Translations under genes and position numbers: made by a program
In this document: positions 24,529 through 44,118 of the stretch, in pieces
Numbering within the stretch: position 1 is the stretch's first letter
Layout of the letters: every line of letters starts with the position of its first letter
Assembly (NCBI GenBank): GCA_965204755.1
Contig: OZ242011.1
Coordinates: forward strand, 1,824,001 to 1,888,000
Source of the DNA: Candidatus Marinacidobacterium sp.
GTDB taxonomy: Bacteria; Acidobacteriota; Vicinamibacteria; Marinacidobacterales; Marinacidobacteraceae
Length of the DNA: 64,000 bases
Direction: 5' to 3'
The notes under the pieces: model-generated
What the model saw: the letters and a program-made list of their open reading frames with translations, nothing else
Databases searched by the model: none
Told to the model about the DNA's origin: nothing

Positions 24529-24560
24529 CGACGAAATTTGTCGCTCTCTTGATCTATCGT
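24529..24560 (+). promoter_or_regulatory. WYL/DriD-type box plus -10 (copy 1)
   Basis: CGAC gaaattt GTCG, N11, TATCGT. Confidence 0.7.
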
Positions 24561-24642
24561 TCCCGCCGCCGCCGGAAAGGGGGGTCGAGGTCGGCCCGTT
24601 GGGGGCTCTCCAGACGCTCCGAAGAGCGGCGAGGAAACGCCT

Positions 24643-24789
24643 ATGCGATACTGCCCTACAATGAACATCGTGCGGCTCGGCACCCGACTCCGGAGTGCGC
24701 CGCGCAGAACGACGAAAGAAGATATCCAGAGCGAGGCCGGCGCTTCCCGGCGGTCGAGCGGACGGAGAAGGGAGATGCCGTCGACATGA
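24643..24789 (+). CDS. 48-aa leader ORF homologous to the WYL N-terminal HTH region
   Basis: MRYCPTMNIVRLGTRLRSAPRRTTKEDIQSEAGASRR vs WYL start; stop overlaps the next ATG (ATGA). Confidence 0.55.
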   Translation: MRYCPTMNIVRLGTRLRSAPRRTTKEDIQSEAGASRRSSGRRREMPST

Positions 24790-25859
24790 GTACAACCGAT
24801 TCGTCGCCGCGGGAGAGCGGCCAGCGTTCGGCGACATCTGCCCCGGAGCGGGTGTCCGGACCGCAGACCGGCAGGAAACGGTCTTCCCTTCCAGTTTCCA
24901 CTTTTCGCGTCGCCGTTGCGATGTCGTTCGTGATCTACTGGATTTGGGGCGTCCTCACCTATCCGTTTTTCGACACCTTCGCCGACGATTTTCCGTTCGC
25001 GGACCGCGGCCCCGAGAGTCTCGCGTCTTCGGCGGTCGTGGTTGTGTTGTTCGCGGCCGTTGCCGTCGTGGGTTGGCTGAAGAACCGCGCGGAGTTTCGC
25101 CGCGCCGTCAAGGCCGTCGAGCAAGATCCGACATCCCGCATCTCGCCGCGAATACACCGGTTCCTCGAGAGGATAGATCCGACCTTCGCCCAACGGAAGG
25201 ACGGATGGAGTCGTCGCGCAGCCGAGTTCGTCGATGAAGATCTGGAGTCTCCCGACTCATTGCGAGAAGCAGTAAGCCAGTATTTCGCCAAGATCGCCCC
25301 GACGATGGCCTTTCTAACGTCGTCGAAGAAGAGGAAGATCGTCCGGCTTCGTGGCGCCATCGAGAGACTCCCCGAGTCAGTGCGAAGAAACGAAGCTCGC
25401 GAGTGGATGGCCCCGACTCGCAGCGCCTTCGAGATATTGTTTCTCGTCTTCATGCCGACTTATCTGGTCGTCAATGTGGCCGAGTGGATGGCCGGTCGAC
25501 CTTACTGGGGAGGGATCCGATTCGAGGCCTTCTTCGCATCGTTAGCCGTGACCTTCGTGTCGATCGTCATAGCGACTATCGTTCGTGTGCAACGAACGCG
25601 GAAGGACTTCGGCGAGTCGCTGGAGGGCGCATCCACCGTAGGCCTGTCAGGTCTCGCGATCGCGGAGGTGGTCGTCAATGGCCCGAGAAGCGTGGCGCAT
25701 TTCCTCGGCATGTGGTTGGCCCGCTTTTTCCTGCTTCTGAGAGTACGCAAGTGGACCACTACGATCGTGTTCGTTGGCACCCTGCTTCTTCTCTCACGAG
25801 CCTTCGTCGCTCTGTACTGCGTCATGCCTTGGACTTCACCCTGCACCACACTATTCTGA
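24786..25859 (+). CDS. Multi-pass membrane protein (paralog A)
   Basis: About 5-6 hydrophobic segments; shares KRKIVRLR, APTR and ASTVG with 33060-34043. Confidence 0.75.
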   Translation: MSTTDSSPRESGQRSATSAPERVSGPQTGRKRSSLPVSTFRVAVAMSFVIYWIWGVLTYPFFDTFADDFPFADRGPESLASSAVVVVLFAAVAVVGWLKNRAEFRRAVKAVEQDPTSRISPRIHRFLERIDPTFAQRKDGWSRRAAEFVDEDLESPDSLREAVSQYFAKIAPTMAFLTSSKKRKIVRLRGAIERLPESVRRNEAREWMAPTRSAFEILFLVFMPTYLVVNVAEWMAGRPYWGGIRFEAFFASLAVTFVSIVIATIVRVQRTRKDFGESLEGASTVGLSGLAIAEVVVNGPRSVAHFLGMWLARFFLLLRVRKWTTTIVFVGTLLLLSRAFVALYCVMPWTSPCTTLF

Positions 25860-25941
25860 ATTCTGAAGAAGCGCCCGCCGATGTCGTTGCCTTCGGGGCT
25901 CGTGCGAAGGAAGTGACGGATGTCGCCGGAGGTCGGACCAT

Positions 25942-27567
25942 TCACATGCCCCAGATGCGAATCGTCAGGGCCGCGCCCTCGGTCGGCGGCGAGTCCGGCG
26001 TGACCTCCCAAGTCCGCGGCGCCTCCGGGTCGGCCGTCCTCCGCACGGAGAGGGCTCGCTCGAAGATCCTCTCTTCCCAGGTCTTGTTCCCGGCGTCGTC
26101 GATCACGACGAGGTGACCCTCCTCGGCGTCGCAGCGGTCGAGATACCGCGCCGTCTGCGCCGCGCCCTCGCGGATGACCGTCTCGAGCGCGTCGTGTTCC
26201 CGGCGCACCTTGCACTCCACGACGAACCGCTGGAGCCGGTCGGACGCGCGCCATTCGATCAGCAGGTCGCTCCGACCCATTCCGAGGGCGTACTCCCGGA
26301 CGATTCGTCCCCCGGCGTTGACGATCCGCTGGAGGAACGCCTGCAGCAGCACCTGCACCGCCGCCTCCCGGAAAGAGAACCCCTGCGCCCACCACTCGGA
26401 GTGTTCGCGGAAGAACCCCTGGAACGCCGTCAGCAGTTTCGGGACATCCAGACTGCGGTCTGCGCGAAGGAACGGTGTGTTGTCCGCGCTGAGGCGCGGT
26501 TCCGCCGCCACCGACAGGAGTCGGGGCACGACTTCGCGGTATATCGGGTTCGCGATTTCGACTTCCCCGTTCGCCTTGGTCAGGCCGAGCGCCCGCACAT
26601 AGGCCAAGTCGGTCCGGTCCGTCGAGAGGAACCGGGCGCGGCCGGCGAGGATGGGTTCGATCACCCGACGCACGCGCGGTTCCTTCAGTCGGTCGGCGAA
26701 GTGCCGCAGGAGGATCGGGCTGTAGAGGATCAGTCGGTCCCGTGCGGCTGCCACGGCATCCCTCTCGATGGTCCGCGACCGATCCCGGCCGGCCTCGTTC
26801 TCGAAGCAGACATCTCTCGCCAGCGCGTTCACCAGCCACGGTTGGCCGGCGGTCGCGTCCCAGATCTCTTGGACAGCATCCGGAGCGAATCCCTGTCCGG
26901 TCTCCTGCGTGTGCTGACCAAAAAGCCCCTCGACTTCGCCTCGTGAGAAGTCCGGCAGCCGCAGCGACTCCGACACGATGTTGAACGAACCGGCGTCTCC
27001 CAGCGGATAGTCCCGCAGGTCCCGGAGGCCGCAGAGGACCACGCAGCGAGGGAAACGGCGCGGGCGGCGCGCGAAACGGGCGCGCAACTGGCTGAGCAGC
27101 GCGAACAGCGTGTCCGCGTCCAGGCCGTCCACTTCGTCGAGCAGCAGCACGAGGCGCTCACCGCCCGTCGTCTGCGCCCACCGCGCGAGCGACGCTCCGA
27201 TCGCATCCGCCGGGCCGCGCTTGTCGAGTTCTCCCGGCCAGATGCCATCCAGCGAATCGTCATCGAGACACGCGACAGCGGCCTCGCCGATCGCGCTCAA
27301 GACGCCGCGGACGGCCGCCTCCCGGCCTCCGCCCACCCTTCGCGCCGACTCGACGCTGGCGTACAGGGAGCGCCAACCCTCCGCAGCGAGGCGCTCCCGG
27401 AGCGCGCCGAGGACGGAGGTCTTGCCGGTCTGCCGGGGCGCGTGGAGGACGAAGTACGCGCGGCCTTCCACCAAGTCGAGGATCCGCGGGAGGTCCAGCC
27501 GGCCCAGCGGGGACACGGCGTAGTGGACTTCCGGGTCCACCGGCCCCGCCACGCTGAAACGCCGCAT
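25942..27567 (-). CDS. AAA-like ATPase with C-terminal PD-(D/E)XK-like domain
   Basis: HAPRQTGKT, LLLDEVD, GQPWLVN, GRSDLLI...VVECK. Confidence 0.85.
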   Translation of the reverse strand: MRRFSVAGPVDPEVHYAVSPLGRLDLPRILDLVEGRAYFVLHAPRQTGKTSVLGALRERLAAEGWRSLYASVESARRVGGGREAAVRGVLSAIGEAAVACLDDDSLDGIWPGELDKRGPADAIGASLARWAQTTGGERLVLLLDEVDGLDADTLFALLSQLRARFARRPRRFPRCVVLCGLRDLRDYPLGDAGSFNIVSESLRLPDFSRGEVEGLFGQHTQETGQGFAPDAVQEIWDATAGQPWLVNALARDVCFENEAGRDRSRTIERDAVAAARDRLILYSPILLRHFADRLKEPRVRRVIEPILAGRARFLSTDRTDLAYVRALGLTKANGEVEIANPIYREVVPRLLSVAAEPRLSADNTPFLRADRSLDVPKLLTAFQGFFREHSEWWAQGFSFREAAVQVLLQAFLQRIVNAGGRIVREYALGMGRSDLLIEWRASDRLQRFVVECKVRREHDALETVIREGAAQTARYLDRCDAEEGHLVVIDDAGNKTWEERIFERALSVRRTADPEAPRTWEVTPDSPPTEGAALTIRIWGM

Positions 27568-27807
27568 GCGTTGAGTATGGCCGGACCGCCGAGGAGGCGC
27601 GGGTTGCCGGAACGGCTCCGCCGCCCAGCCCGGCCCTGACCGCCCGGGCGCCCGGCCTCGCCGGGATCGAGACCCGAATTCGGCCTCGTGGGGCCCGCTC
27701 ACCGTCAATTTTCCGTCGTTCAACGGAGAACCCAGCGCGCCCGACCCCCGGCGGGCGAAATTCGGCGCCCTACCGAACCGAGCCCGCCGGAGGTCTCACC
27801 GAACACC

Positions 27808-30687
27808 ATGCACGAATACGACCGCGCCGCCGTTCGCGGCTACCTGTTGAACGCCGTCCGCGTCGCGCTGCGGAACCGCAAGGCCGCGGCGCGGCTGGCC
27901 GACTGGGTTCGCTCCAACCGCGGCGAACTGGACGAGGAGGGGATCGCGGACCTCTACGCCGTCTGCGAGACCCGCGAAGAACCCGACTCCGACCCGAACG
28001 GCTACCGAGGAATGGTTCGCGGCGGGTTCGAGTCGCCGCGCCGGGCGACCGATCGGGACCTCGCCTTCCTCTCCGAGGTCGCCGCCGCCCTCGCCGAGAC
28101 ACCGATCCTCACGCCCGGAGACGAACTCTTCTCGCGAAGCCCCACCGCTCGAGCAGCGCACCTGTTCGCGTCCCGGCTCGGATTCGACGGCGTTTCGGCT
28201 GCCGTGATCCACCTGGGTCATCTCCACGAAGAATCGGGAGTCGTCCAGAGTCTTTGGGACAACATCCACGAAAGCCGCAAGGACCCCGTCGCAACGACCG
28301 CGCTCCTGCTCGGCGCCGGTACGAAACCGGTGGACCACGCGCTGCTCGCGCTGCTCGAGGCCGGCATCTTCCGTCGCGATCGCTGGAATTCGTCGTCACT
28401 CGTCAGCAGTGTCACCGGCGGCATCGAGTCGATCTGGCAACCGCCGGTCGAGAACGACCGCCAACTCGTCGAACGCCTGCTCACGGGCCCCACCGAGCCG
28501 TCACTGGCGCTCGACCAGTTCTCCCACCTGCCGGACCGCGACGAAGCCGTCGCCCTCCTGGCCGGCGCCCTTCGGGACGCGGCCCCGGGAGTGAACCTCC
28601 TCCTGCACGGCCGCCCCGGGACCGGCAAGACCGAATTCGCCAAGACCCTGGCGGCCGCGGCGGGCGGTTGCCTCTACTCCATCGGCGAACCCGTGCCCGA
28701 CTCCGCTTCCTGGAAGCGTGACGGCGACCGGTGCCCCGAACTGCGCCGCGCCGACCTTCTCCTGAAGACGGAGCGGAAAGCGGTACTGCTCTGCGACGAA
28801 TCGGACGATGTCTTCGCCCCGCAGAGGCACGAAGAATCTCGCGATCGCCTCTTCCGGCTCCGGCTCCTCGAAGAGAACCGGACGCCCACGATCTACACGG
28901 CGAACCGAATCGACACCCTCGACGAGGCCGTGCTGCGCCGCTTCACGATCGCGCTGCGCTTCACCGCCCTCTCCCCGCGCCGGCGGACGACGATGTTTCG
29001 CCGAATGCTCGAAGAATCGAAACTTCCCGAACTGGAGGCCGCCGAAGCAAACCCGGAACTCGCAAATCGCCTGTCGGTCGAACTCGAAGCCCCGCCCGGA
29101 GTCGTGGAACGGGCGATCCTCGCCACCCGACTCACCGGAGGCGGAAAAGCCGCCCTGTTCCGCCACGCGGAGCGCCTAGAACGCACGATCTCCGGCGTAC
29201 GCGCGATCCCCCGGCTGGGCGCCCCCGTCCGGCCGAAGCACCCGTGGGCCGCTTTCTCCCACCTCGGCGCGGACGCCGAAGATGCCCGGCGCTCGCTGGC
29301 CGCCGCCGTCTTCGGAGAGCGCGGCGAAACGCCCGAAGAACCGCGCAAGGGAGTGAACTTCCTCTTCTACGGCCCTCCCGGCACCGGCAAAACGGAGTTC
29401 GCCGCGACGCTCTGCGCCGAGATCGGCGCCTGCCTCTATTCCGTCGGTCAGCGGGAGTTCGGCCCCGACGCTCGCGTAGCGGCCGACCGCTGGGAGTGTC
29501 TCGAATACGCGCTGGAATCGCTCGCCGACGAACCGGGCGCGGTAATCCTCTTCGACGAGATGGAGGACCTCCCGGGTATGCCGAAACACTGGATGAACCG
29601 CGTCCTCGAAGAGAACCGGACGCCGATCCTCTGGGCCTGCAACGCGACGGACTACTACCGAGCGTGCGAACCCTTCTTCCTCGACCGGATGCTCCTCTCC
29701 GTGGAATTCCGCTCGCTGCCCCCGCCCGCGAAACGGGAAATCTACGAAGGAATCGTCTTGAAGCGCGGCGTCGCGGACGAGACCTCCGCGGCGCTCGCCG
29801 ACGAGTTCTCCCGGATGCCCGATGTGACCCCGCGCCAGGTAACTCTCGCTTCCGCCTGGCCGGCGGTGGAAGACGGCGACGCCGACGGCATCCGCCGCAA
29901 CCTCGACCGGAAGCGCCGCCTGCGCCGCGGCGCCCCGCCGGCGTCACTCCCGAAGCCGGCCCTCTACGACCCGAAACTCCTCCGCGCCGACTGCGACCTC
30001 CTCGAACTTGCCGACCGGATCGTCCGCTGCGGCCCCCGTCGAATGGGGCTCCTCTTCTCCGGCCCGCCCGGAACCGGGAAGACCGAGTTCGTCCGCCACC
30101 TGGCGAAGCGCTGGGATCGGGAGATCCTGCCGCGCCGCGCTTCGGACCTGCTCGACCGGTATGTCGGGGAGAGCGAGAAGAACATCGCCCGCGCCTTCGC
30201 CGAGGCCCGCGACCTGGACGCGATCCTCGTGCTCGACGAAGCGGACTCGCTGCTGGCCGACCGGCGCGCGGCGCAACACCGCTGGGAACTCGGCCAGGTG
30301 AACGAACTGCTCGGCCAGATGGAGGCGCACCCGCTGCCGTTCGCCTGCACCACGAACTTCGCTGACGCGCTCGATCCGGCTGCCGCGCGGCGCTTCCTGT
30401 TCCGCGCCGAGTTCCGCTGTCTCGACCGCGCCGGCATCGCCCGGGCCTTCCGCCTGTTCTTCGAAGCGGACGCGCCGCCGGAAGCGCTCGCCCTCGAAGG
30501 TCTCACTCCCGCCGACTTCGCGAATGCCCGCGAACGCGCCATCGTCCTCGGCTTCCGGGACGAGCCCGCTCGCATCGTCGAGGACTTGCGCCGCGAGGGC
30601 CGAGCCAAGGGCGGGCCGGAGAGGCCGATCGGGTTCGCTTCCGCCACTTCCGGTCGGCGGTCGCTCCCCGTGACCCCGCCGGCGTGA
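27808..30687 (+). CDS. AAA+ ATPase with three tandem ATPase modules
   Basis: HGRPGTGKT/LCDE, YGPPGTGKT/LFDE, SGPPGTGKT/VLDEAD; RBS GGAGGT. Confidence 0.88.
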   Translation: MHEYDRAAVRGYLLNAVRVALRNRKAAARLADWVRSNRGELDEEGIADLYAVCETREEPDSDPNGYRGMVRGGFESPRRATDRDLAFLSEVAAALAETPILTPGDELFSRSPTARAAHLFASRLGFDGVSAAVIHLGHLHEESGVVQSLWDNIHESRKDPVATTALLLGAGTKPVDHALLALLEAGIFRRDRWNSSSLVSSVTGGIESIWQPPVENDRQLVERLLTGPTEPSLALDQFSHLPDRDEAVALLAGALRDAAPGVNLLLHGRPGTGKTEFAKTLAAAAGGCLYSIGEPVPDSASWKRDGDRCPELRRADLLLKTERKAVLLCDESDDVFAPQRHEESRDRLFRLRLLEENRTPTIYTANRIDTLDEAVLRRFTIALRFTALSPRRRTTMFRRMLEESKLPELEAAEANPELANRLSVELEAPPGVVERAILATRLTGGGKAALFRHAERLERTISGVRAIPRLGAPVRPKHPWAAFSHLGADAEDARRSLAAAVFGERGETPEEPRKGVNFLFYGPPGTGKTEFAATLCAEIGACLYSVGQREFGPDARVAADRWECLEYALESLADEPGAVILFDEMEDLPGMPKHWMNRVLEENRTPILWACNATDYYRACEPFFLDRMLLSVEFRSLPPPAKREIYEGIVLKRGVADETSAALADEFSRMPDVTPRQVTLASAWPAVEDGDADGIRRNLDRKRRLRRGAPPASLPKPALYDPKLLRADCDLLELADRIVRCGPRRMGLLFSGPPGTGKTEFVRHLAKRWDREILPRRASDLLDRYVGESEKNIARAFAEARDLDAILVLDEADSLLADRRAAQHRWELGQVNELLGQMEAHPLPFACTTNFADALDPAAARRFLFRAEFRCLDRAGIARAFRLFFEADAPPEALALEGLTPADFANARERAIVLGFRDEPARIVEDLRREGRAKGGPERPIGFASATSGRRSLPVTPPA

Positions 30688-30722
30688 CCGAAACCACTTT
30701 CCTCGAATGAGCGCCCGAACCG

Positions 30723-30754
30723 CGACCGCTTCTGACGCAGCGACGGTGCAGGAT
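30723..30754 (+). promoter_or_regulatory. WYL/DriD-type box plus -10 (copy 2)
   Basis: CGAC cgcttct GACG, N11, CAGGAT. Confidence 0.5.
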
Positions 30755-30981
30755 TCGGGATGACGCGCCGCTCGGGAACGCCGCAACGCGATCGTGGCAA
30801 GCCCGCAACGGACGACCGATACCGATGCCATACGCCATAGACCGGTCGCGGCGAATCGCCGGGATCCGCCGACGAGAACGCCAACACGACCGCAGAAGAC
30901 GACCCCGATGAACGAATCCGCCCCCGCCGAACGGGGACACCCATTCCCTCCGTCACCGAATTACCGCCGAGGACGACTTCC

Positions 30982-31980
30982 ATGAACCACACCGACATCG
31001 CCACCGAACTGCCCGCCCCCGCCGCTCCGTCTCCGCGCGCGGCCGCCGATCCGCGCGACCGCTGCTTTTCCACGGGAAGAACCTACGGGCGGCGGCTCGA
31101 CTCCGGATGCCCGGACTGCGAACACCTTCCCGCTCCCGGCGCACGCGCCGGCGATACACCCCGGGTGATTCCGGCCTGCTCCACCTGTTTCCCGGCCGAT
31201 ACGGAACGAAGCGACTACGAATTCACCTTCGAGACTCCCGCCTTCGGCGACTGGATGGAGCGGGATATGGAGAGGGCGTGCCTCCGCTGCGGCGAGCGCG
31301 ACAATCCTCCCTACGGCGTCCTCCGCTGGCGCGGCCGCGCCGCCCCGCCGCGCTGCGACTGCGAGTTGCGCTGGACGGCCGCCGCCACCGCGTGGACGAG
31401 CGCCGCCGGGCTCCTCGTCCTCCCCCGCGGCGCCGCCGTCCCGACCGGCGACGGCCCGCAGGGCGGCCCCGTTCCGGTCCGCGTCTCGCTCTGGAAACGC
31501 GCCGAATACCGAGCCGCCTCCGCCCTCTTCCCCGACCCGGACACCGCCCGGCTCGCGGCGGTCACCGTGGATGCCGAAGGCGCGGTCCTCGAAGTCCGCG
31601 AAGCCGCCTTCCCGGAGAGTCTCGGCGACAGCGCCGAACCCACGCTCGCCGCGCCCGGCCCGATCCTCACCGTCGCCGCCATCCGTCCCGACCGCGCCGA
31701 GGCGCGAAAGGCGGCCCACCACCGCCTCGCCATCGCGCGAAGGCGCGCCCCGCAGCGCCTCGACCTGGACTTCCCGCTGGACCTCCCGCTCGTCGCGCCC
31801 GACCACGAGTTCTCCGACCGAGGCCCCGCCCTCCGTTTCGAGAACTGGCCCGCCGCGCTCGCCGGCGACTGGACGGCGTATTCCGCCACGCGCTTCGACG
31901 ACTCCCGGCTCCTGACCGCGGAACGCCCCGGCCGCCACACCTGCGCGGCGTGCGTCCCGGCCCCGAAGGAGTCGCCATAG
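30982..31980 (+). CDS. Hypothetical Cys-rich (putative multi-zinc-ribbon) protein
   Basis: CPDC, CSTC, CLRC, CDC, CAAC; RBS GAGGA. Confidence 0.65.
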   Translation: MNHTDIATELPAPAAPSPRAAADPRDRCFSTGRTYGRRLDSGCPDCEHLPAPGARAGDTPRVIPACSTCFPADTERSDYEFTFETPAFGDWMERDMERACLRCGERDNPPYGVLRWRGRAAPPRCDCELRWTAAATAWTSAAGLLVLPRGAAVPTGDGPQGGPVPVRVSLWKRAEYRAASALFPDPDTARLAAVTVDAEGAVLEVREAAFPESLGDSAEPTLAAPGPILTVAAIRPDRAEARKAAHHRLAIARRRAPQRLDLDFPLDLPLVAPDHEFSDRGPALRFENWPAALAGDWTAYSATRFDDSRLLTAERPGRHTCAACVPAPKESP

Positions 31981-32072
31981 CGCGCCTTCCTTCCCGCCAG
32001 CCGTCCCCGCCGAACGGTCCACGACCGAGACGAGAATTCGAAGAAAACGCCACAAGAGGAGGCCAAAACACG

Positions 32073-32402
32073 ATGTGGAAGACCATCACCAAGACCATCC
32101 GCAATCTCCTGCTCAACGCCCTCGCCATACCGAGTATTCTGCTTGGTGTGATCTGCTTGATTACTTGGCTGACAGTGATTGTCGTAGTAACCGGCACTTG
32201 GATAATTTCGGTTGTCGCATTGACCGGCGCGATCCTCATCGTTGCGTCGCCGCCCGGTTTCCTGCTCGCCATGGCCGTGGCGTACGAAAAGGGACGCAAG
32301 GAACGCAAGAAGCGCAAGCGCAAGGCCGAGAAGAAGCGTCGCACCGCTCGGGCTCTGCCCATCAGTCCGGACTACGCCGCGGCGGACGGCGAACACCAAT
32401 GA
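32073..32402 (+). CDS. Small membrane protein with basic tail
   Basis: MWKTITKTIRNLLL start after GAGGAGG; long hydrophobic stretch, KRKRK tail. Confidence 0.7.
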   Translation: MWKTITKTIRNLLLNALAIPSILLGVICLITWLTVIVVVTGTWIISVVALTGAILIVASPPGFLLAMAVAYEKGRKERKKRKRKAEKKRRTARALPISPDYAAADGEHQ

Positions 32403-32475
32403 GCGGGCAGGCCGGACATCCGCGACTGTCCCTCGACCAGCGAGTCGCAGCACGACCATCGAAACGAGGTGCATC

Positions 32476-32745: not shown

Positions 32746-32802
32746 CCTCGACCACGGAGAGTCGCGTCCGAACGGAGTCTCGATGGCGGATTGGAAGACA
32801 TA

Positions 32803-35903: not shown

Positions 35904-36248
35904 ACCCCCCGCGCCGCCGGCGGGCCGCAAACGCGCCCACCGGCCGGCGCGTGCGGTCGTCGGCGCTCCCCACTCGCGAGAACGGCGCTCTTGCGGAAGG
36001 CGGGGCCGAGAACCGTCGCTTCCGACCCCCCACCGTCGCGCCGGTTCGCCTCCCGAGCGCTCGGGATTCATGGCCACCGGCGCTCGCCCGACTGCGAGCC
36101 GTCCCTCGCCGGCGTCTTGCGCCCCCTCCCGCAGTTTTCTATAGTCGCGCTCAACGGGATTCCCGCGTCCGTCCGGGCGCGTGGGCGGCGATTCGCGCCG
36201 CCGATTCGTCTCCCCACCTTTCCATCGCAGGAGTTCACCCTCCGGTTC

Positions 36249-36740
36249 ATGACGACCTCTCCGGCGGCGGCGGCACTGCGCAGCCGCACGATGCGGGCGG
36301 TTCGGTCCAAGGACACGGCCCCGGAGATGCGCGTCCGCCGCCTGGCCCACCGCCTCGGGTACCGCTACCGCCTTCACCGGAAAGACCTGCCGGGAAAGCC
36401 CGATCTCGCATTCCCGTCCCGTCGGAAAGTCATCTTCGTCCACGGCTGCTGGTGGCATCAGCATGACTGCGCTCACGGACGCCGCCTCCCGGCTACCCGA
36501 CGGGAGTACTGGCTTCCCAAATTGAGCGGGAACCGGCGCCGCGACCGGGAGAACCGGCGGCGCCTCGAGGCCTCGGGCTGGGAAGTCCTGACCGTCTGGG
36601 AATGCGAGGTGACCGACGACTCCGCGCTGCGCGCGCGGCTTCGGAATTTCCTCGGCGAGACGCTCGCCCCACCCGGAGACCCCGCGCTCCCCCTGACCGC
36701 CGAGACCCGCGACAGTTTTCGTCCGGCCCCCGGGCGATGA
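36249..36740 (+). CDS. vsr: Very short patch repair endonuclease
   Basis: MRAVRSKDTAPE, LPGKPD, FVHGCWWH, VWEC. Confidence 0.95.
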   Translation: MTTSPAAAALRSRTMRAVRSKDTAPEMRVRRLAHRLGYRYRLHRKDLPGKPDLAFPSRRKVIFVHGCWWHQHDCAHGRRLPATRREYWLPKLSGNRRRDRENRRRLEASGWEVLTVWECEVTDDSALRARLRNFLGETLAPPGDPALPLTAETRDSFRPAPGR

Positions 36741-36842
36741 TCCCCGCATGAGATCGAGTCGACCTCCCCGCGCCGGGCGCGGCAGCGTCGCAGGCGAGTC
36801 CTCCCGCTCCGCTCCCCGATCCCCGAGCCCGGAGTTCCGGTG

Positions 36843-37886
36843 ATGCCGCGGCCCTCTGCGATCAGCCTCTTCGCCGGCGCCGGCGGTCTCGACATCGGCG
36901 TCGACCGGGCGCGGATCAAGACGATCTGCGCCATCGAACTGGACCGACACTGCGCCGCGACGCTGCGCCGCAACGCCCGTCGCAAGACGGTGTGGCAGGT
37001 GGACACCCGCGCCTTGGATCCGCAACGGGTTCTCGAAGTGTTCGGCATCGAGCCCGGCGAACTCACGCTGCTCCACGGGGGGCCGCCCTGCCAACCATTC
37101 AGCCAGATCGGGCACCGACGCGGGCTCGACGACCCGCGCGGCGCCCTCGTCTTCGAGATGGCGCGATTCGCGGCCGTCCTCCGGCCTTCGGCGGTCCTGA
37201 TGGAGCAGGTTCCCACCTTTCTCCAGGCCAAGAGCGCCACGGGCGAGCCGCTCGTCGAGTCTCTGCGCGAGGCGTTCTCCCGCATCGGCTACGACCTGCA
37301 CTCGCACACCCTGGATGCCCTGCACTTCGGAGTCCCGCAGAAGCGCCGTCGCGCGTTCGTCGTGTGCGTGCCCGAAGGGCAGTCGTTCTCGTTTCCCGGC
37401 ATCGCTCCCGCGGCGGTGTCCACGGTCGGCGAAGCGATCCGGGATCTCCCGAAGCCGGCGGCCAAGGGCGTGGAGCCGGCTCTGCCCAACCACACGGACA
37501 TCACTCCCGCCCGTGATCGCCAACGCATCCGCTATGTCCCGGAGGGTCTCTGGCTCTCCAAGTCACCCGGCGTGCCCCCGGACATCATGCGCAATCTCAC
37601 GAGAAAGGACACGACGAAGTTTCGCCGCCTCCATCGTGGTCTGCCTTCCCCGACGGTTCGCTGCGGCGAACCCTTCTACCACCCGACAGAACCTCGCTAC
37701 ATCACGCCGCGCGAAGCCGCTCGACTGCAAGGCTTCCCTGACGGGCATGTTCTCGTCGGGCCGATCCGCGGACGAACGGGCCAGGTTCCCGATCTGGATC
37801 AACACCGACAGGTGGCAAACGCCGTTCCTCCGCCGCTGGCGGCGGCTGTCGCTCGAAGCATCGGAGCATCGTTGTGTCTTTCGTAG
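36843..37886 (+). CDS. DNA cytosine-C5 methyltransferase
   Basis: LFAGAGG, GGPPCQPFS, MEQV (ENV variant), PQKRRR, REAARLQGFPD, NAVPP. Confidence 0.95.
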   Translation: MPRPSAISLFAGAGGLDIGVDRARIKTICAIELDRHCAATLRRNARRKTVWQVDTRALDPQRVLEVFGIEPGELTLLHGGPPCQPFSQIGHRRGLDDPRGALVFEMARFAAVLRPSAVLMEQVPTFLQAKSATGEPLVESLREAFSRIGYDLHSHTLDALHFGVPQKRRRAFVVCVPEGQSFSFPGIAPAAVSTVGEAIRDLPKPAAKGVEPALPNHTDITPARDRQRIRYVPEGLWLSKSPGVPPDIMRNLTRKDTTKFRRLHRGLPSPTVRCGEPFYHPTEPRYITPREAARLQGFPDGHVLVGPIRGRTGQVPDLDQHRQVANAVPPPLAAAVARSIGASLCLS

Positions 37887-38866
37887 TATCCGAACTCTTC
37901 GGTCAAGCGATCGGGGCTCGGAAGGCGGCGAAGGACGCTCGAGAGGACAGCGAGACAGAGACCTCCATTCGACAGGCGTGGTGCCCGTACATGGACGCCC
38001 GGTGTGATGGCGGCGGCAACCGGGACATGATGCGAGTCGCCGCGAACGACCCGGCGATCGGGCCCCTGTTCGACAAGGCGGTCGGCGATTCGACCGGCGG
38101 CCACATTCCGTGCGGCGTTTGCAGCGTCGAGCGCCATAGCAACGGAGAGCAGTGGGCCATCTGTCCGAGACGCCTGTTGGCCTTTGGCCCCTCCGGCGTC
38201 TCCGGGTATCACGAAGCACTGGCGCAGCGGATTCTCAAGATCGGCGGCTTCGAGGCGGGACAGCGTGTCGAAGTGTGGTCCGAGATCCACCTGAAGGAGA
38301 CGGGCCCCGATCATCGGAAGTTCGATTACCGACTGGACTATGTGATGCGAGGCGTTGAGAAGAAGTCCGCACCGCTCATCATCGAGGTCATGACCTGTTC
38401 GACTTCGGGCGGCAACAAGGCGAAAGGAACGGACATGAACATGGCCTTCCGTTCCGCCGTGCTGTTCGCTCGAGGAATCCGACCGGAACCGGCGCGATCG
38501 CCCGGCGTGAATGTGCGGCAGGTGTGGGCGCGCATGGCGTCGCAACTGATCGTCAAGTCGGAGGCCGCCCTCCATTGGGGAGGCCGAGCGGTATGGGTCA
38601 TACAGGATGTGTTGGCCCAGTACATCCAAAGCCAGACGGCACTTCCTCTCGAACGCCTCCGCTCCGACGACTGGATCCCCGGCGAAGTCAATCTGATCGT
38701 CTGCAGCCTCGATGGAGGAATGAAGTTGTACTCGGGCCCGATCCGCTCGTCCAAGTCGGCTCGTCCATGTTGGCTGGAGATTCTGGGCGCCCCCCATATT
38801 CCGGCGCTGGAATCGTTGGCGCGAAAACTGGACGAGAGCGCGCCTATCGGGCAATTCGCGATCTAG
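37874..38866 (+). CDS. Putative type II restriction endonuclease, NotI-like fold
   Basis: Cys4 pattern CPY..RC..GVC..CPRR; D..IIEV catalytic-like motif; adjacent to MTase and Vsr. Confidence 0.7.
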   Translation: MSFVVSELFGQAIGARKAAKDAREDSETETSIRQAWCPYMDARCDGGGNRDMMRVAANDPAIGPLFDKAVGDSTGGHIPCGVCSVERHSNGEQWAICPRRLLAFGPSGVSGYHEALAQRILKIGGFEAGQRVEVWSEIHLKETGPDHRKFDYRLDYVMRGVEKKSAPLIIEVMTCSTSGGNKAKGTDMNMAFRSAVLFARGIRPEPARSPGVNVRQVWARMASQLIVKSEAALHWGGRAVWVIQDVLAQYIQSQTALPLERLRSDDWIPGEVNLIVCSLDGGMKLYSGPIRSSKSARPCWLEILGAPHIPALESLARKLDESAPIGQFAI

Positions 38867-39045
38867 GCCGACGGTTCCCACGGCCGGCCCAAGTTGCGAC
38901 CATGAGATTGCGCAGTGGCGAAAGTGTTGCCCAAGATATTGCAAATGCGACATCACGGTTGTTGCGAAAATGATGCCAATACGATTGCGAACGCGCTGCT
39001 CCCGCTCTACGCTTCGCCCTCGGCGCCGTCCGGCCGCTCACTGCA

Positions 39046-40308
39046 TTGCTCCAGAACACCGCTTACCGCCCCCGCATCGCCGACCGGGAACTGGCGCAGC
39101 GCCTTCGCGCCGCCGGAGCGGTCCTGATCGAAGGTCCGCGCGGCTGCGGGAAGACGGAGATCGCGAGGTGCGCCGCCGCGAGCGAAGTCCTGCTGGACAC
39201 CGACCGGAACGCGCGCGAAGCGCTGGCGGTCGACCCGAGCGTCGTGCTCGCCGGCGACACGCCCCGCCTCTTCGACGAGTGGCAGTCCACCCCGGAGGTT
39301 TGGAACCACCTGCGACAAGCCGTGGACGACCGCCGCGAACGGGGCCAGTTCATCCTGACCGCCTCCGCCATCCCTCCGGACGACCGGACGCGCCACACCG
39401 GCGCGGGACGCGTCGGCCGCTTCCGTCTGCGCCCGATGTCGCTCGCCGAACTCGGCCGTTCGACGGGCGGAGTCTCCCTCCGCGAGCTGCTCGACGGGGA
39501 TCGCCCGTCCGCCGGAAAGGCGGAACTATCGGCAGCGGAACTCGCCGAGATCCTCTGCGTCGGCGGCTGGCCCGGACACCTCGACTCGCCGCCGAAAGCG
39601 GCCGCGCGCGCCAACCGTGACTACCTCGAAGACACCTGCCGAAAGGACCTGGAGCGGGCGGACGGCGTCCGCCGCGACCCGCGCCGCGTGAGCCGCTTCC
39701 TCAAGTCGCTCGCCCGCCACACCGCGACCTGCGCTTCGCTTGCGACCATCGCCCGCGATGTGGGCGGTTCGGAGGAAACCGTCGCCGCGCCCACCGCCCG
39801 CGCCTACCTCGCGGCCCTCGAACGAATCATGGTGGTGGAAGACCAGCCGCCCTGGTCGCCGCGGCTCCGTTCCCGCTCCCGCCTCCGCGCCGCGCCGAAG
39901 CGCCACTTCGCGGACCCGTCCCTGGCCGTGGCCGCCGTGGCCGCCGGCCCCGCCCACCTGCTCCGGGACTTCCGGTGGTTCGGCTTCCTCTTCGAGTCGC
40001 TGGTCGTCCGCGACCTCCGGGTGTACGCCCAGGCCACCGGCGGCCTCGTCCACCACTACCGCGACAACACCGGCCTCGAAGTGGACGCCGTCGTGGACGC
40101 CGGCCCCGGCCGCTGGGGAGCGTTCGAGGTGAAGATGGCCGCGGCCCGCGCCGACGAAGCCGCCGCGAACCTCCTCCGCTTCGCCGAACGGGTGGACACC
40201 GACCCCATCGGGAAACCGAGCGTCCTCGGCGTGATCGTCGCCAACGGCTACGCCTACCGCCGCCCCGACGGCGTCGCCGTCATCCCGATCACCGCACTCG
40301 GCCCGTAG
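39046..40308 (+). CDS. AAA_14 ATPase with DUF4143 domain
   Basis: GPRGCGKT, DEWQ, GGWP, KRHFADP, LFES, EVDAV, EVK. Confidence 0.88.
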   Translation: MLQNTAYRPRIADRELAQRLRAAGAVLIEGPRGCGKTEIARCAAASEVLLDTDRNAREALAVDPSVVLAGDTPRLFDEWQSTPEVWNHLRQAVDDRRERGQFILTASAIPPDDRTRHTGAGRVGRFRLRPMSLAELGRSTGGVSLRELLDGDRPSAGKAELSAAELAEILCVGGWPGHLDSPPKAAARANRDYLEDTCRKDLERADGVRRDPRRVSRFLKSLARHTATCASLATIARDVGGSEETVAAPTARAYLAALERIMVVEDQPPWSPRLRSRSRLRAAPKRHFADPSLAVAAVAAGPAHLLRDFRWFGFLFESLVVRDLRVYAQATGGLVHHYRDNTGLEVDAVVDAGPGRWGAFEVKMAAARADEAAANLLRFAERVDTDPIGKPSVLGVIVANGYAYRRPDGVAVIPITALGP

Positions 40309-40424
40309 CCGGGAAACCCGACCGCCCGCGTCCCCGGGCCGGTCGCCCCCGCCACCGGCGCAACGGATCTCGCTCCGCCGCGGCGCCGCCGGGGCGCGAG
40401 CCGCGCTCACGCCGGTGCGAACTG

Positions 40425-40456
40425 CGACCGGAACTGACGCACGGACTCGCAACACT
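40425..40456 (+). promoter_or_regulatory. WYL/DriD-type box plus -10 (copy 5)
   Basis: CGAC cggaact GACG, N11, AACACT. Confidence 0.5.
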
Positions 40457-40585
40457 GGCGCAGTCCCGCCTTCGCTGCGGTCGGCGACCGGGCGGCAGCA
40501 GCGCCCGGCGCCGGCAGCGATCCGTGGCGCCGAGGCAGCCCGCGCCGCTCTGCCCGCCGAAGTCCGCCAACCATCAGGAGAACCG

Positions 40586-41671
40586 ATGACGCGAACACGA
40601 TCCTGTCTTCTTTCCGCACTCGCGCTCGCCCTCGCGCCGAGTCTCACCGCCGCGCAACCGAGAATCGAACGCGTAAACCTCAACGCCCGTCCGCAGTCCG
40701 ATTGCGCCGAATGGGGGGCCGCCGGCTTCCTCGAGGAGCAGCCGGTCGAGCGCATCGTCGCCTGCATCGCCGCCGGCTCCGACCCGAATGAGACTTTCGA
40801 CAGCGGCCGCACGGTTCTTCGCCATTCCGTCTCGATCGCGACAGAGAAGCGTCCGGAGTTGATCGATGTCGTAGAAGCATTGATCGCCGCCGGCGCCGAT
40901 GTCCACCACCGGGACCCGACCGCGAACGGGTCCGAGCCACTTGTCGCCGTGGCGGTGTCGGCAGCACTCGACTCGCGACACCGGGCGATCGCCGAGCGGG
41001 TCGTCGACGCGCTCCTCGAAGCCGGGGCCGACGCTGACGCTTCGGTGGAAGACAACGACTCCAGCGCCGACGGGATCACTCCCCTGATGATGGCGGCATT
41101 CAAGGACGCGCACCGCCTCGTCGAGGCTCTGATCCGCGCCGGCGCCGATCCCGAGGCCACCTTCAGCGGATTCACGCCACTCCATGCCGCCCTCGCCTCT
41201 CGCCAGAGGCCGCATGCGGTGGTCGAAGCGTTGCTCGATGCCGGCGCGGACACCGGTTTCCGATCGCCGGACGGACAACTCCCCATACATCGCGCCGCCA
41301 GACGGGCCGACGGCGGCGAGTTGATCTCCCTGCTCGCCGCTGCCGGCGCCGATGTCAACGCCCGGGCCACCGAAATGCGCGAGACGGCGCTCCATATCGC
41401 GGCCGGGCACAACTCGAATCGCGAAGTGATAGATGCGCTCCTGGCCGCCGGGGCGAATACGGAAGTACGGAGCAACGCCGGCCAGACTCCGCTGCACTGG
41501 TCGGTGATCTTCGCCCGGAGCACGACCGGCTTGGAGGCGCTGCTCGCCGCCGGCGCGGATCCGAATGTCGTCGATGTGCTGGGTCTTCTGCCCATCGAGT
41601 ATGCCGAGGACAACAAGTTGATTCGCGGAACGGGGGCCTATGTCAACCTGATTCGAGCGCGCTTGCGGTGA
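40586..41671 (+). CDS. Secreted ankyrin-repeat protein
   Basis: Signal peptide; repeated TPLH/TALH...LLAAGAD. Confidence 0.9.
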   Translation: MTRTRSCLLSALALALAPSLTAAQPRIERVNLNARPQSDCAEWGAAGFLEEQPVERIVACIAAGSDPNETFDSGRTVLRHSVSIATEKRPELIDVVEALIAAGADVHHRDPTANGSEPLVAVAVSAALDSRHRAIAERVVDALLEAGADADASVEDNDSSADGITPLMMAAFKDAHRLVEALIRAGADPEATFSGFTPLHAALASRQRPHAVVEALLDAGADTGFRSPDGQLPIHRAARRADGGELISLLAAAGADVNARATEMRETALHIAAGHNSNREVIDALLAAGANTEVRSNAGQTPLHWSVIFARSTTGLEALLAAGADPNVVDVLGLLPIEYAEDNKLIRGTGAYVNLIRARLR

Positions 41672-41687
41672 CGCCGAGAAAGTAGCG

Positions 41688-42266
41688 ATGGACTCCGAAG
41701 CCGGCCGCGCGCGCTCCACGAACGCGCTCGCCACCAACCCGGTCCCGCCCGGCGCGGAACGCCCGCGCTCGTCGGCGCCGGCCGCCGAAACGGAAACGCC
41801 CGGGACGGAAACGGAGGAAAACGAAAGGGCCGAATCGGAGGACCGGCTCGTGAGGGAAGCCGTCACCGGGGGCATGGTGGTCGTGTTCCTCATCGTCGGC
41901 GGACTGGGGGCCTACTGGTTCTGGAGCGATCCGTCTTCGCCCAACCTGATCTGGACGGCCATATGGGAGGTGCTTTGGCCTTGGGGTCTGCTGGCGGCCC
42001 TCGCGGGCGGTCTCCTGCAGGGGACGCGCTGTGCTCTCCGTATCCGTCGGGAGTCCGAAGACGGCCCCGTAGAAACCGGGGAGGCGTTCGCCCTGGCCGC
42101 CTTCGCCATGTGGGGCGTCGTGCGCGGCTTCCTCAAGGAAACGAAGGAAGACGGCCAATCTCTCGCCAAGGTCCTGGTGGTCCTCGCCGCCATCGTGTTG
42201 CTGCTCCTCGTCTTCGCGCCCTCGGCGCTCGAAGACATCAAACGCTGGCTCGAAAGCCATCTCTGA
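41688..42266 (+). CDS. Hypothetical membrane protein
   Basis: Three to four hydrophobic segments. Confidence 0.65.
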   Translation: MDSEAGRARSTNALATNPVPPGAERPRSSAPAAETETPGTETEENERAESEDRLVREAVTGGMVVVFLIVGGLGAYWFWSDPSSPNLIWTAIWEVLWPWGLLAALAGGLLQGTRCALRIRRESEDGPVETGEAFALAAFAMWGVVRGFLKETKEDGQSLAKVLVVLAAIVLLLLVFAPSALEDIKRWLESHL

Positions 42267-42420
42267 AACATCCCGCCCCGGACCGAATGACCCGGCCTCC
42301 ACGCCTCCCCGACTTCGACTTCGGCGGCCACCCTGGGAACCCGCGCGGCGCGCTGCCGGTCCGCCACCCGCGGCGAACGAACGCCGCCCACCCACCTCGC
42401 TTCGGCGAAGGAGAGATTCG

Positions 42421-43158
42421 ATGCTCGATTCCATAAAGGCCGACATAGAGTCCGAGAAGTCCAACCGCGCCGGGCTGCTGTCCGCGCTGGGACTCCTGCT
42501 CGTCGCCGGGCTCGTGATCTACGGGTGGCAACAGCGCGAGGAGAACAACCTCGCCCGAATCACCCGGGAGAACGAGGAGTGGGAACGGCGCGTCCGCGCC
42601 GAAGAGACTCGGCAGATCCAAGCGCGCGCGAATGCCTGGAGAGGTGTCCGGGCGGCCAATGCCCGGTGGAACGAGTTGTTCCCGTGGATGGAACGGACGA
42701 CCGAACTCCGCCAGCGAGTCCTGGCCGGGGCGGCGGGCGTGGATTGGCTGCTCAGCGACAGCAACCCGCTCGATCCGTTCGGCCTCGCTCTCGGCGCGGG
42801 CGCCATCGAGATGACCAGCCGCGTGTTCGCCCAGGCGCAGGCGCAGATCCAGTTGAAGTGGCCCGAAGTCGTCGAGGTCCTGGTCGAGATGGACGAGGCC
42901 GCGGGAGCCATGTTGCGGGCCGATGCCGCGTTACCCGGTGATGAAGCAGCCGTGGCCGCCTTCGAACGCGCCAAGGAGGTGGCCTCCCGATGGGCGGATG
43001 ACGCCAACTTGATGCAGCAGGTAGCGGCCCAGGACTTCTTCAGCGCCGGCGCGTCGGCCGCCCGTCTCAACGAGACCACTGCCGAACTCATGGCGGCGCT
43101 CGGAGAGTTGATGCCCACCCCGACGCCGTCGAACACCGGCCCCCTCACTCAGCCATGA
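42421..43158 (+). CDS. Hypothetical single-TM coiled-coil protein
   Basis: RBS AAGGAG; N-terminal TM followed by a helical charged region. Confidence 0.7.
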   Translation: MLDSIKADIESEKSNRAGLLSALGLLLVAGLVIYGWQQREENNLARITRENEEWERRVRAEETRQIQARANAWRGVRAANARWNELFPWMERTTELRQRVLAGAAGVDWLLSDSNPLDPFGLALGAGAIEMTSRVFAQAQAQIQLKWPEVVEVLVEMDEAAGAMLRADAALPGDEAAVAAFERAKEVASRWADDANLMQQVAAQDFFSAGASAARLNETTAELMAALGELMPTPTPSNTGPLTQP

Positions 43159-43511
43159 CCGCCCTCCCACCCGGTCGGCGAAACGGCGCCGCCGCCTCGA
43201 CGCTCCTCTACCCGGCGACGGCGATGGCGCTCGGCGCCGCCGCCTGCATGGACGCCAGCGGCGGCGACGATCCGCTCCGGATACTCATCGGGCTCGGAGG
43301 CCCCCTCGCCACCTTGGGACTCGTGTTCCAACGCAACGCGACGATGGTGGGGATCCTCCTGGCGCTGTTCATCTGGCCGCTCGGCCTCCTCCATGCGCTG
43401 ACGAAGAGGGACCGGAGGGAAGGGGAAGACCGGGGCATCGCGAGCCGGAAGTCCGGCCGTCCCGCCGCCGCGAACCGGAAACCGCCCGCAACGACCCGGG
43501 CAACGACCTGA
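43155..43511 (+). CDS. Small membrane protein (paralog 1)
   Basis: LGAAAC, LIGLGG, FIWP..LHALTK. Confidence 0.7.
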   Translation: MTALPPGRRNGAAASTLLYPATAMALGAAACMDASGGDDPLRILIGLGGPLATLGLVFQRNATMVGILLALFIWPLGLLHALTKRDRREGEDRGIASRKSGRPAAANRKPPATTRATT

Positions 43512-43597
43512 CCCTCCATCCCCGAGCCGAAGCGCCGACCGATACCGGACGGACACCTCGCGGATCGGTTCAGCGGAGCGATCCGTCGCCCCTTCTG

Positions 43598-43629
43598 CGA
43601 CCGGATTCGGCGCAGGTCCGCCCTACCGT
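43598..43629 (+). promoter_or_regulatory. WYL/DriD-type box plus -10 (copy 6)
   Basis: TG-CGAC cggattc GGCG-CA; TACCGT 11 nt after GGCG. Confidence 0.6.
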
Positions 43630-43692
43630 CGCGGTTCCCGAAGGCGGGACGATTCGTCCCGACCCGACGACTCGACAGAAAGGAAATCCGCC

Positions 43693-43995
43693 ATGACCAC
43701 CGCGCCCACCCGAAGGCGCCGCCGCCGGCCCGCTTCGTTCTTCGTCGGCGCCGCGCTCGCGCTGTCTCTCGGCGCCGCCTGCGCGGGATCCGGCAACCCC
43801 GGCACGGACCTCCTCTTCATGCTCATCGGCGTCGGCGGCGCCATCGGAACCATCATGCTCGCGTCGCGCCGCGGCGTGATGACCACGGGAGTCGTCGTGC
43901 TGACCTTCGTCTTCTGGCCGGCCGCCCTCATCCATGTCCTGACGAAAGAGCGCGATCCAGAGAAGTTGGACATCGGGCCTTCGAGCAGCGACTGA
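43693..43995 (+). CDS. Small membrane protein (paralog 2)
   Basis: LGAAC, LIGVGG, VFWP..IHVLTK; RBS AAGGA. Confidence 0.72.
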   Translation: MTTAPTRRRRRRPASFFVGAALALSLGAACAGSGNPGTDLLFMLIGVGGAIGTIMLASRRGVMTTGVVVLTFVFWPAALIHVLTKERDPEKLDIGPSSSD

Positions 43996-44086
43996 CCCTC
44001 CGCCTCGCGTGCGAAGCCGGGCGGATACGACGATAGCGCGGGGAGGCCGCCGCCCGAATCATCGAATCGATCCGTCGCTCCAAATG

Positions 44087-44118
44087 CGACCGGATCTGGC
44101 GCAACGGCGCCCTAGTCT
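44087..44118 (+). promoter_or_regulatory. WYL/DriD-type box plus -10 (copy 7)
   Basis: TG-CGAC cggatct GGCG-CA; TAGTCT 11 nt after GGCG. Confidence 0.62.

Follow-up and report, generated by a model that had tools for sequence, protein, structure and literature searches.

We describe seven promoters in a variable island of the genome of Candidatus Marinacidobacterium sp., lying within the 64-kb stretch of DNA that was analysed (the window, to which all coordinates refer unless a genome position is given). Each appears to be an activator-dependent promoter of the sigma-70 type carrying a DriD-type operator, and the seven are most probably read by a DriD homologue encoded in the island itself. 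The gene for this regulator lies behind one of the promoters, so the circuit would be positively autoregulated. We place the probability of this reading at about 0.8. The appearance of single-stranded DNA (ssDNA) probably induces all of the island at once. The source genome, referred to as G000, is a single contig of 3.98 Mb with 71.7% G+C; a genome of the same genus is referred to as G001. The island extends from 24441 to 60874 (no strand assigned), with a GATase gene on one side and a TonB-dependent receptor gene on the other, and in G001 the corresponding genes flank a different island of ~27 kb.

The seven promoters share one architecture. A 20-bp quasi-palindromic box with the consensus nTRCGAC-N7-GDCGCn covers the usual place of the -35 element, and is separated from a -10 hexamer (NANNNT, mostly TANNNT) by exactly 9 nt in all seven cases. 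From left to right, and all on the + strand, these are promoter 1 at 24526-24560 (box ATACGACGAAATTTGTCGCT, hexamer TATCGT), promoter 2 at 30720-30754 (CCGCGACCGCTTCTGACGCA, CAGGAT), promoter 3 at 32800-32834 (ATACGACGGAATCTGTCGCC, TATCGT), promoter 4, that of driD itself, at 34213-34247 (CTACGACACATTTTGTCGCA, TAAGGT), promoter 5 at 40422-40456 (CTGCGACCGGAACTGACGCA, AACACT), promoter 6 at 43595-43629 (CTGCGACCGGATTCGGCGCA, TACCGT) and promoter 7 at 44084-44118 (ATGCGACCGGATCTGGCGCA, TAGTCT). The positions, + strand orientation and hexamers reported in an earlier note on this DNA were all reproduced, and, as it had also claimed, all seven are intergenic by our gene calls and precede + strand open reading frames (ORFs). 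At box positions 7-12 no more than two of the six nucleotides of TTGACA are matched in any of the sites, and a scan with the sigma-70 consensus detected no promoter at any of the seven.

Nucleotides G2, C4, G12 and C14 are kept in all seven boxes, and the box centres are A or T at 28 of 49 positions, compared with 28% A+T in the genome. All seven fit the consensus CGXC(X)7GXCG printed in PMC10853764, in agreement with the proposal that these are DriD-type palindromes. The boxes fall into two classes. Those of class A (24526, 32800 and 34213) have the form (A/C)TACGAC-N7-GTCGC, which is found at only these three places in the genome. Those of class B (30720, 40422, 43595 and 44084) have the form nnGCGACCG-N5-G(A/G)CGCA; GCGACCG-N5-GNCGCA has seven matches genome-wide, of which four are the class B sites. 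The class B regions are alike at the box and -10 positions and at little else, with a mean column identity of 59% over 189 columns.

The occurrence of these seven sites is not due to chance. The half-site pair CGAC-N7-G(T/A/G)CG is not itself enriched: the window contains 41 matches to CGAC-N7-GDCG compared with 46.45 ± 7.38 in dinucleotide-preserving shuffles (n=100), and 76 of the 100 shuffles reach 41. The 20-bp box together with its -10 element does rise above the shuffles. When the most permissive form of that element (NANNNT) is required to start 11 nt after CGAC-N7-GDCG, there are exactly seven matches in 64 kb, all on the + strand, against an expectation of 1.11 ± 1.07; the largest number in any shuffle is five, and none of the 100 reaches seven. 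Five of the seven hexamers are TANNNT, the other two being CAGGAT and AACACT. Across the 3.98-Mb genome CGAC-N7-GNCG-N11-TANNNT has 10 matches compared with two for a reversed-pattern control, and five of the ten lie within the 20-kb stretch that holds the seven sites. A 20-bp position weight matrix built from the seven sites, a check proposed in the earlier note, scores them between 20.9 and 26.9, which is circular for the training sites themselves; elsewhere in the genome 20.9 is attained once, and the next highest score is 18.3. In a survey of 301 genomes from the class, G000 (8 versus 1 in the control) and G001 (11 versus 1) stand furthest above their controls for this pattern, and the only other count of at least 8 is 10 versus 4, in a genome of 10.2 Mb. 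This tally takes in two genomes flagged as unpublished (G033 and G606), and no specific claim rests on either.

The island regulator is encoded at 34330-35319 on the + strand. It is a protein of 329 aa with a TTG start and winged helix-turn-helix, WYL and WCX domains, and its box (34213-34232) is located 98 nt upstream of the TTG. The description of this protein as DriD-like is upheld by a phmmer search of the PDB, in which the DriD chains 9pfq and 8tp8 match with E values of 8e-52 and 1e-51 over residues 2-323 of 329, i.e. the full length; the identity to Caulobacter DriD is about 40%. The next family is PafC, with an E value of 7e-9 and a match confined to residues 146-318, the WYL-WCX part. 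No other WYL regulator is found among the PDB sequence matches at E ≤0.01. Pfam gives WYL at 4.9e-15 and WCX at 1.9e-14. A search of genome contigs with the protein returned only three distant Firmicute loci, with 24-31% identity.

According to the text of PMC10853764, the DriD site is XC1G2X3C4(X)7G12X13C14G15X, in which Arg37 reads G2, Arg41 the guanine opposite C4, and Glu40 C1. Read by hand from the alignment, all three residues are identical in the island protein, lying inside an identical RRTAERM stretch. The DNA specificity of the island DriD is thus well supported by its sequence. That ssDNA acts as its trigger we regard as somewhat better than an even chance, for reasons that are given below.

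Both the box and its spacing recur in the island of G001. The genes flanking that island are closely related to those of G000 (amidohydrolase 86%, GATase 85% and TonB receptor 88% identical). When a matrix derived solely from the seven G000 boxes is run over the 35 kb of G001 between the corresponding flanking genes, 10 places reach a score of 16 or more. At nine of these, TANNNT follows on the + strand after exactly 9 nt; at the tenth the hexamer is CAGTCT. With the -10 element required there are 14 sites in the G001 island, all on the + strand, and none in 80 kb of other loci (L024, L026, L030 and L031). The strict pattern has 15 matches across G001 compared with two for the control, nine of them in the island and two upstream of a full-length driD orthologue outside it. 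Box-gene pairs common to both islands are those of the exonuclease (67% amino acid identity), a small membrane protein (32%), the family of the gene at 42421 (37%) and driD. Of 24 G001 island proteins, 15 have a predicted transmembrane segment.

DriD of the island type is rare. It is present in 3 of 28 genomes of the family (E ≤1e-60) and in 4 of 401 sampled genomes of the phylum (E ≤1e-55), G000 being included in both counts. The three phylum matches outside the family are 56% identical to the island protein, and the orthologue from the same genus only 51%, which suggests horizontal movement. A box of the CGXC(X)7GXCG form is also found at the gene's own promoter in the driD orthologues of G001 and G013 and in the homologues of G179, G191 and G243. 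The last three belong to other families with 57-62% G+C, and have one or two such promoters beside driD. One of these stands directly before an AAA ATPase gene whose product is 40% identical to that of 27808-30687, and in G179 a PDDEXK_4 nuclease gene comes next.

The promoter geometry appears to be the same as that of Caulobacter. There the DriD sites overlap the would-be -35 at one fixed distance from the -10, in promoters that have no consensus -35, as described in the text of PMC13004042. The promoter oligonucleotides printed in that paper for cryo-electron microscopy and fluorescence polarization have the 20-bp box, 9 nt, and then CAAGGT (didA), CAATCT (CCNA_03891/01149) or CAAGCC (bapE), and in an 'optimised -35' oligonucleotide box positions 7-12 are replaced, leaving a 17-nt spacer to the hexamer. 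The placement of the Caulobacter -10 is inferred from these oligonucleotides, and on that placement the gap of 9 nt equals that in all seven island sites. By eye, the box at 44084 agrees with the didA box at 16 of 20 positions, and that at 32800 with the CCNA_03891/01149 box also at 16 of 20.

The Caulobacter regulon (didA, bapE, recJ, dnaG and CCNA_03891/01149) is served by a homologous regulator with identical base-reading residues and a like consensus with an A/T-rich centre, and in both organisms the regulator's own gene carries a box. The kinds of target overlap too, comprising a small membrane protein (the division inhibitor didA in Caulobacter), an exonuclease (recJ) and a part of the replisome (dnaG there and a DnaB paralog here), although the sequences of the targets are unrelated. 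The two regulons differ in other respects. The Caulobacter targets are dispersed in the core genome, whereas those of the island are clustered in one accessory and variable region and are mostly orphan membrane or secreted proteins, two of them gained by copying the 5′ region of the regulator gene. The island driD stands behind a DriD promoter in the same sense, which predicts positive autoregulation; by contrast, 10 nt separate the Caulobacter box from the start codon, and a constant level of DriD is reported there.

Promoters of the PafBC type likewise have no functional -35 element, the activator site being at a fixed distance from a TANNNT -10. PafBC is also a WYL/WCX activator; as described, it is a heterodimer or fusion that requires RNA polymerase to bind DNA, at a short and non-palindromic site. 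We rejected a PafBC-type identity for the island regulator, which is a single protein of 329 aa with a palindromic box, and for which the match to PafC covers residues 146-318 only.

These comparisons suggest how the circuit could work. A dimer of the DriD homologue would bind the boxes through its winged helix-turn-helix when the WYL/WCX pocket holds ssDNA, arising from DNA damage or from the replication of phages or plasmids. The bound protein would then act as an activator by recruiting RNA polymerase, with transcription starting downstream of the -10 hexamers, and all seven transcription units would fire together. The exonuclease that is predicted to be co-translated with driD could plausibly feed back on the DNA signal.

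A number of observations count against this interpretation. The hexamers CAGGAT and AACACT are weak -10 elements, and three of the seven sites, like several of those in G001, are paralogous duplicates, so the independent promoters are fewer than the number of sites. Matrices for class A (TACGAC..GTCGC) and class B (TGCGACCG..GRCGCA) fail to retrieve each other; the didA box is a hybrid of the two, with a class A left half (ATACG..) and a class B right half (..CTGGCGCA), which argues that one DriD-type protein can read both. In the regulator, five of the ten ssDNA contacts listed for DriD in PMC10853764 are identical (Tyr168, Arg204, Trp206, Arg207 and Tyr240), two are changed conservatively (Tyr192 to His and Ser172 to Asn) and three are lost (Arg178 to Phe, Arg189 to Ala and Arg288 to Gln); the contacts were mapped by hand onto the alignment, and two of the positions fall in a gapped loop. 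Most of the residues tested in Caulobacter for contact with the C-terminal domain of the RNA polymerase alpha subunit are also not kept (R121 is Gly, R122 Glu and P125 Glu, and E128 is retained, in a gapped loop). RNA runs matching 34150-44149 of the window were looked for and none was listed. Lastly, a second WYL paralog is present throughout the family (genome 2091371-2092324) which is 35% identical to the island DriD and keeps Arg37 and Arg41 (HRTAQRY), so that it could read similar boxes.

If that paralog rather than the island protein read the boxes, wholly or in part, the island would be tapping into a core damage regulator. We consider this improbable, though it is the alternative that survives best. 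The paralog is found in 23 of 24 other genomes of the family, its recognition helix retaining the two arginines as noted, and in family genomes lacking island-type DriD a DriD-like box with TATAGT or TAGAGT stands before an orthologous gene of 1120 aa. There are weak boxes near the paralog's genes in relatives (L007, L008 and L011), and within the G001 island driD survives as a truncated copy of 154 aa. Yet in five family genomes having the paralog only, the pattern is at or below the control level, with 12 matches versus 20. Multiple copies of the box occur only in the two genomes with island-type DriD (G000 and G001), and each island-type driD has a box of its own, whereas the paralog gene has no AT-centred box upstream and directly follows another gene. 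The helix of the paralog also differs at positions 36 and 40 (His and Gln).

The box upstream of the 1120-aa gene is observed at G000:C1:809311, G001:C1:4232337 and in G008, G014, G018 and others, and is conserved across family genomes without island-type DriD. This gene is probably a target of the family-wide paralog. The NCBIfam model 'probable DNA repair protein' matches its product only below threshold (E 6e-8; 31 bits where 300 are required), and for this reason we have left it unnamed.

A second alternative, to which we give slightly less credence, is that the island has adopted the opposite sign: the boxes would be operators, bound by a BrxR/CapW-type WYL repressor that leaves on binding ssDNA, and the island would be derepressed. 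BrxR and CapW are, like the island DriD, winged helix-turn-helix, WYL and WCX regulators found beside defence genes in variable islands, and CapW senses ssDNA according to the account in PMC11662680. Repressors too bind where a box overlaps the core promoter, PADLOC finds in the island genes of the defence type that usually accompany WYL repressors, and Gozzi et al. raise the possibility of negative autoregulation by DriD at the promoter of its own gene. However, a repressor would be guarding sites that, with at most two of six -35 matches and no promoter in the sigma-70 scan, should be weak without an activator, and their geometry equals that inferred for the activator complexes of Caulobacter. 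BrxR and CapW each repress a single neighbouring operon through an operator placed within a complete promoter; the island has seven or more promoters with no -35 element, and the protein has DriD or PafC as its only PDB matches at E ≤0.01. We therefore prefer activation by the island DriD.

It is most unlikely that the repeats merely record past duplication or recombination in a rapidly changing island and regulate nothing today. Three sites are indeed clear paralogs, and G001 has tandemly duplicated modules of promoter and gene as well as a promoter repeated three times in tandem before driD. Yet the class B sites share little outside the box and -10, similarity among the paralogs begins ~10 nt before the box with the CGAC, GTCG and TA..GT positions kept, and box and spacing recur in other families of 57-62% G+C and in Caulobacter, where the published text reports both binding and activation.

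The class A sites reveal how some of these promoters have arisen. The segments at 24529, 32803 and 34216, where the CGAC of each box begins, are 71-75% identical over ~290 nt, and promoters 1 and 3 are 89% identical over 45 nt. The similarity sets in ~10 nt before the box, continues along a 76-nt leader and reaches into coding sequence, with the CGAC, GTCG and TA..GT positions unchanged among the three. The leader has a conserved GAGGA ribosome-binding site followed by MRY.PTKN(I/V)VRLA, which is the N-terminus of the WYL protein. In front of each of the two membrane protein genes, the driD 5′ coding region survives as an ORF of 48 codons on the + strand (24643-24789 and 32917-33063) that is frameshifted after about codon 37, and the TGA of which overlaps the ATG of the next gene (ATGA). 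Over the 38 nt around the junction of remnant and membrane gene the two copies differ at two positions. The two promoters are present upstream of the membrane paralogs as the earlier note had proposed, but, sharing promoter, leader and first 48 codons with driD, they are captured copies of the driD 5′ region. They provide a concrete example of the growth of a regulon. The three 76-nt class A leaders were also examined as a structured leader RNA; a consensus hairpin of 29 pairs with -41 kcal/mol can be drawn, and we rejected this candidate as it has one compensatory pair only and 72% G+C.

The genes behind the boxes are those that had been listed, namely driD with the exonuclease, two membrane paralogs, a Cys-rich protein, an ankyrin operon, a small membrane protein and the clamp-like protein with DnaB; all are on the + strand. 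Promoters 1 and 3 precede membrane proteins of 357 aa (24786-25859) and 327 aa (33060-34043), each with five predicted transmembrane segments; the second is 33% identical to the first, and no family was found for the first. Promoter 2 precedes a protein with 11 cysteines in 332 aa (30982-31980), the start codon of which is uncertain and for which no family was found. Behind promoter 4, a 3′-5′ exonuclease of the DEDDh (DnaQ-like) type (35316-35903) begins 4 nt inside the end of driD. This unit may extend into the genes for Vsr, a C5-methyltransferase, an uncharacterised ORF and a DUF4143 ATPase. We note that 35991-38866, holding Vsr, the C5 cytosine methyltransferase and an ORF of 291-330 aa, is a possible restriction-modification unit, and that the DUF4143 AAA ATPase at 39046-40308 matches PADLOC PDC-S01 with an E value of 3e-68.

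Promoter 5 stands before a four-gene unit (40586-43511) comprising an ankyrin protein with a signal-peptide-like N-terminus (40586-41671), a protein with two transmembrane segments (41688-42266), one with a single segment (42421-43158) and a small protein with two (43155-43511). Promoter 6 precedes a small membrane protein or lipoprotein of 100 aa (43693-43995), a paralog of 43155-43511 whose G001 homologue is also behind a box. Promoter 7 precedes a beta-clamp-like protein with a twin-arginine signal (44185-45135), 38-39% identical to the N-terminal part of the window's DnaN, and a DnaB helicase paralog (45162-46625) that is 75% identical to a second DnaB (genome 1370194-1371528). The clamp-like protein aligns over 120-149 aa with the N-terminal third of DnaN and matches Pfam TAT_signal at 7e-6; its G001 homologue (L028 113-1114) has a similar RR(N/R)FL(K/E)LG start. 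Export of a beta-clamp-like domain, as the twin-arginine signal predicts, would be odd.

The cargo thus appears to be mainly lineage-restricted orphan proteins that are membrane, lipoprotein-like or secreted, together with the exonuclease, DnaB paralog and clamp-like protein. A crude Kyte-Doolittle scan of the 12 non-leader proteins finds at least one transmembrane segment in six, and two more have export signals. Pfam, PHROGs and PADLOC give no match for the membrane paralogs, the Cys-rich protein or the products of 41688, 42421, 43693 and 37991, and with the ESM Atlas the best score for the first membrane paralog is 0.80, with recognition below threshold. Homologue searches return seven proteins for 42421-43158 and six for 24786-25859, at 66-98% identity; these are close relatives with neither names nor Pfam domains, and so no function can be derived from them. 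PADLOC matches among the island genes are an IetA-like AAA domain, PDC-S01, PDC-S26, PDC-S48, Vsr and the methyltransferase, and of these the IetA-like AAA, PDC-S01 and PDC-S26 genes have no boxes. The protein with three AAA domains (27808-30687, + strand) is without an upstream box, while its 40% identical homologue stands directly behind a DriD box in the three distant genomes. A candidate upstream of it (27480-27840) was not counted, being a degenerate GGGC-N7-GGCG at the wrong spacing.

A wider interpretation can be offered tentatively, one that we think less likely than not to be right in full: that the island is a plug-in arsenal, a hotspot with fast-changing orphan cargo wired gene by gene to an ssDNA-sensing activator by a portable cassette of ~35 bp, and that new cargo is recruited by copying the cassette. 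If so, two of the copies took with them the regulator's promoter, its 76-nt leader and 48 codons, leaving a mini-ORF translationally coupled to the new gene. Such wiring in combination with positive autoregulation would make induction of the island all-or-none upon DNA damage or phage replication, a logic unlike that of repressor-guarded defence operons.

DriD has hitherto been a matter of Caulobacter only, with a handful of core targets. Here an accessory island that appears to move horizontally has acquired both regulator and promoter type, the nearest relatives of the regulator being in other families, which points to its portability. With seven sites here and 14-15 in the sister genome there is a natural series from which rules could be drawn, such as which half-site variants are allowed and whether the 9-nt gap is obligatory. 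The small membrane and secreted proteins, the spare DnaB and the putatively exported clamp-like protein become candidates for a response induced by damage or phage.

The earlier note had called the module undescribed. This stands for the island and not for the principle: DriD regulons have been published, and in the Moraxellaceae DdaA is, in the account of PMC12392091, a WYL activator that directly turns on repair and anti-phage defence genes under DNA damage. Compared by description, DdaA is a core regulator that replaces the SOS system, whereas the island DriD is sporadic and its sites are confined to one island. A search of one literature library found no description of an accessory variable island nearly saturated with DriD-type promoters, of regulon growth by copying a regulator's promoter, leader and first codons, or of orphan membrane and secreted cargo under DriD-type promoters. 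Table S4 of PMC10853764 lists 69 DriD homologues, which could help to show how unusual autoregulation from a promoter in the same sense is.

Further features of the sites may be mentioned. A perfect palindrome, CGACGAAATTCGTCG, lies at 35368-35382 (no strand assigned) inside the exonuclease coding region, where it contributes to the ..TKFVA.. codons that precede the LDFET motif. The form CGAC-NN-WWW-NN-GTCG is fitted at only eight places in the genome, this one included, and four of the eight are in the island. No -10 stands at the usual distance from the palindrome, which could serve as an internal operator or could result from the coding of ..TKFVA... Outside the window there are weaker intergenic candidates upstream of genes at G000:C1:1777041 (+), 1629611 (-) and 1991739 (-), with matrix scores of 15.9, 14.4 and 20.9, the last having no NANNNT at the 9-nt gap. 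Judged by eye, two of the genes that follow have DNA-methyltransferase-like N-termini, and one opens a two-gene unit with a Cys-motif protein.

In G001, three tandem repeats of ~190-240 nt lie upstream of the full-length driD orthologue (L025 18700-19160, minus strand), each with a box and a TACGCT or TATGCT hexamer, in one case with a gap of 8 nt and not 9. The truncated driD inside the G001 island (L027 11946-12410) encodes the winged helix-turn-helix and part of the helical bundle without WYL/WCX, and keeps its own box and the RRTAERM helix; this sensor-less fragment could compete with the full-length protein. At L027 14300-17600 the island has tandemly duplicated modules with one box each, in which small transmembrane proteins with ..(I/L)P(I/M/L)WPF.LAG.. 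alternate with Cys-containing proteins of ~220 aa.

As to the setting, window positions 95-7716 hold the C-terminal end of dnaA followed by dnaN, gyrB and gyrA, which places the island ~20 kb from the probable region of the replication origin. Two long copies of the 5′ part of the TonB-dependent receptor gene, 83-94% identical in nucleotide sequence and encoding proteins 91% identical, occur at 56148-57059 and 60854-61774, and a third copy, a fragment of 177 nt, at 53996-54172. Each of the three has a block of island genes on its left, which looks like repeated insertion at one hotspot, the 5′ end of the receptor gene. Among the island ORFs scanned no integrase was found, only an rve fragment. 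Rfam at E ≤0.1 gave a single sub-threshold small nucleolar RNA-like match and nothing else between 22000 and 62000, and a terminator scan found six compared with 11 expected, which says nothing about operon ends. Four DNA or metagenome contig sets contain related strains with the island, one 20.7-kb contig spanning 24403-40081 with 499 differences. In a comparison over 24400-44399, contigs of runs labelled sponge metagenome and marine metagenome carry the island at high identity, and ankyrin-repeat genes are numerous in G000; together these would fit a host-associated lifestyle.

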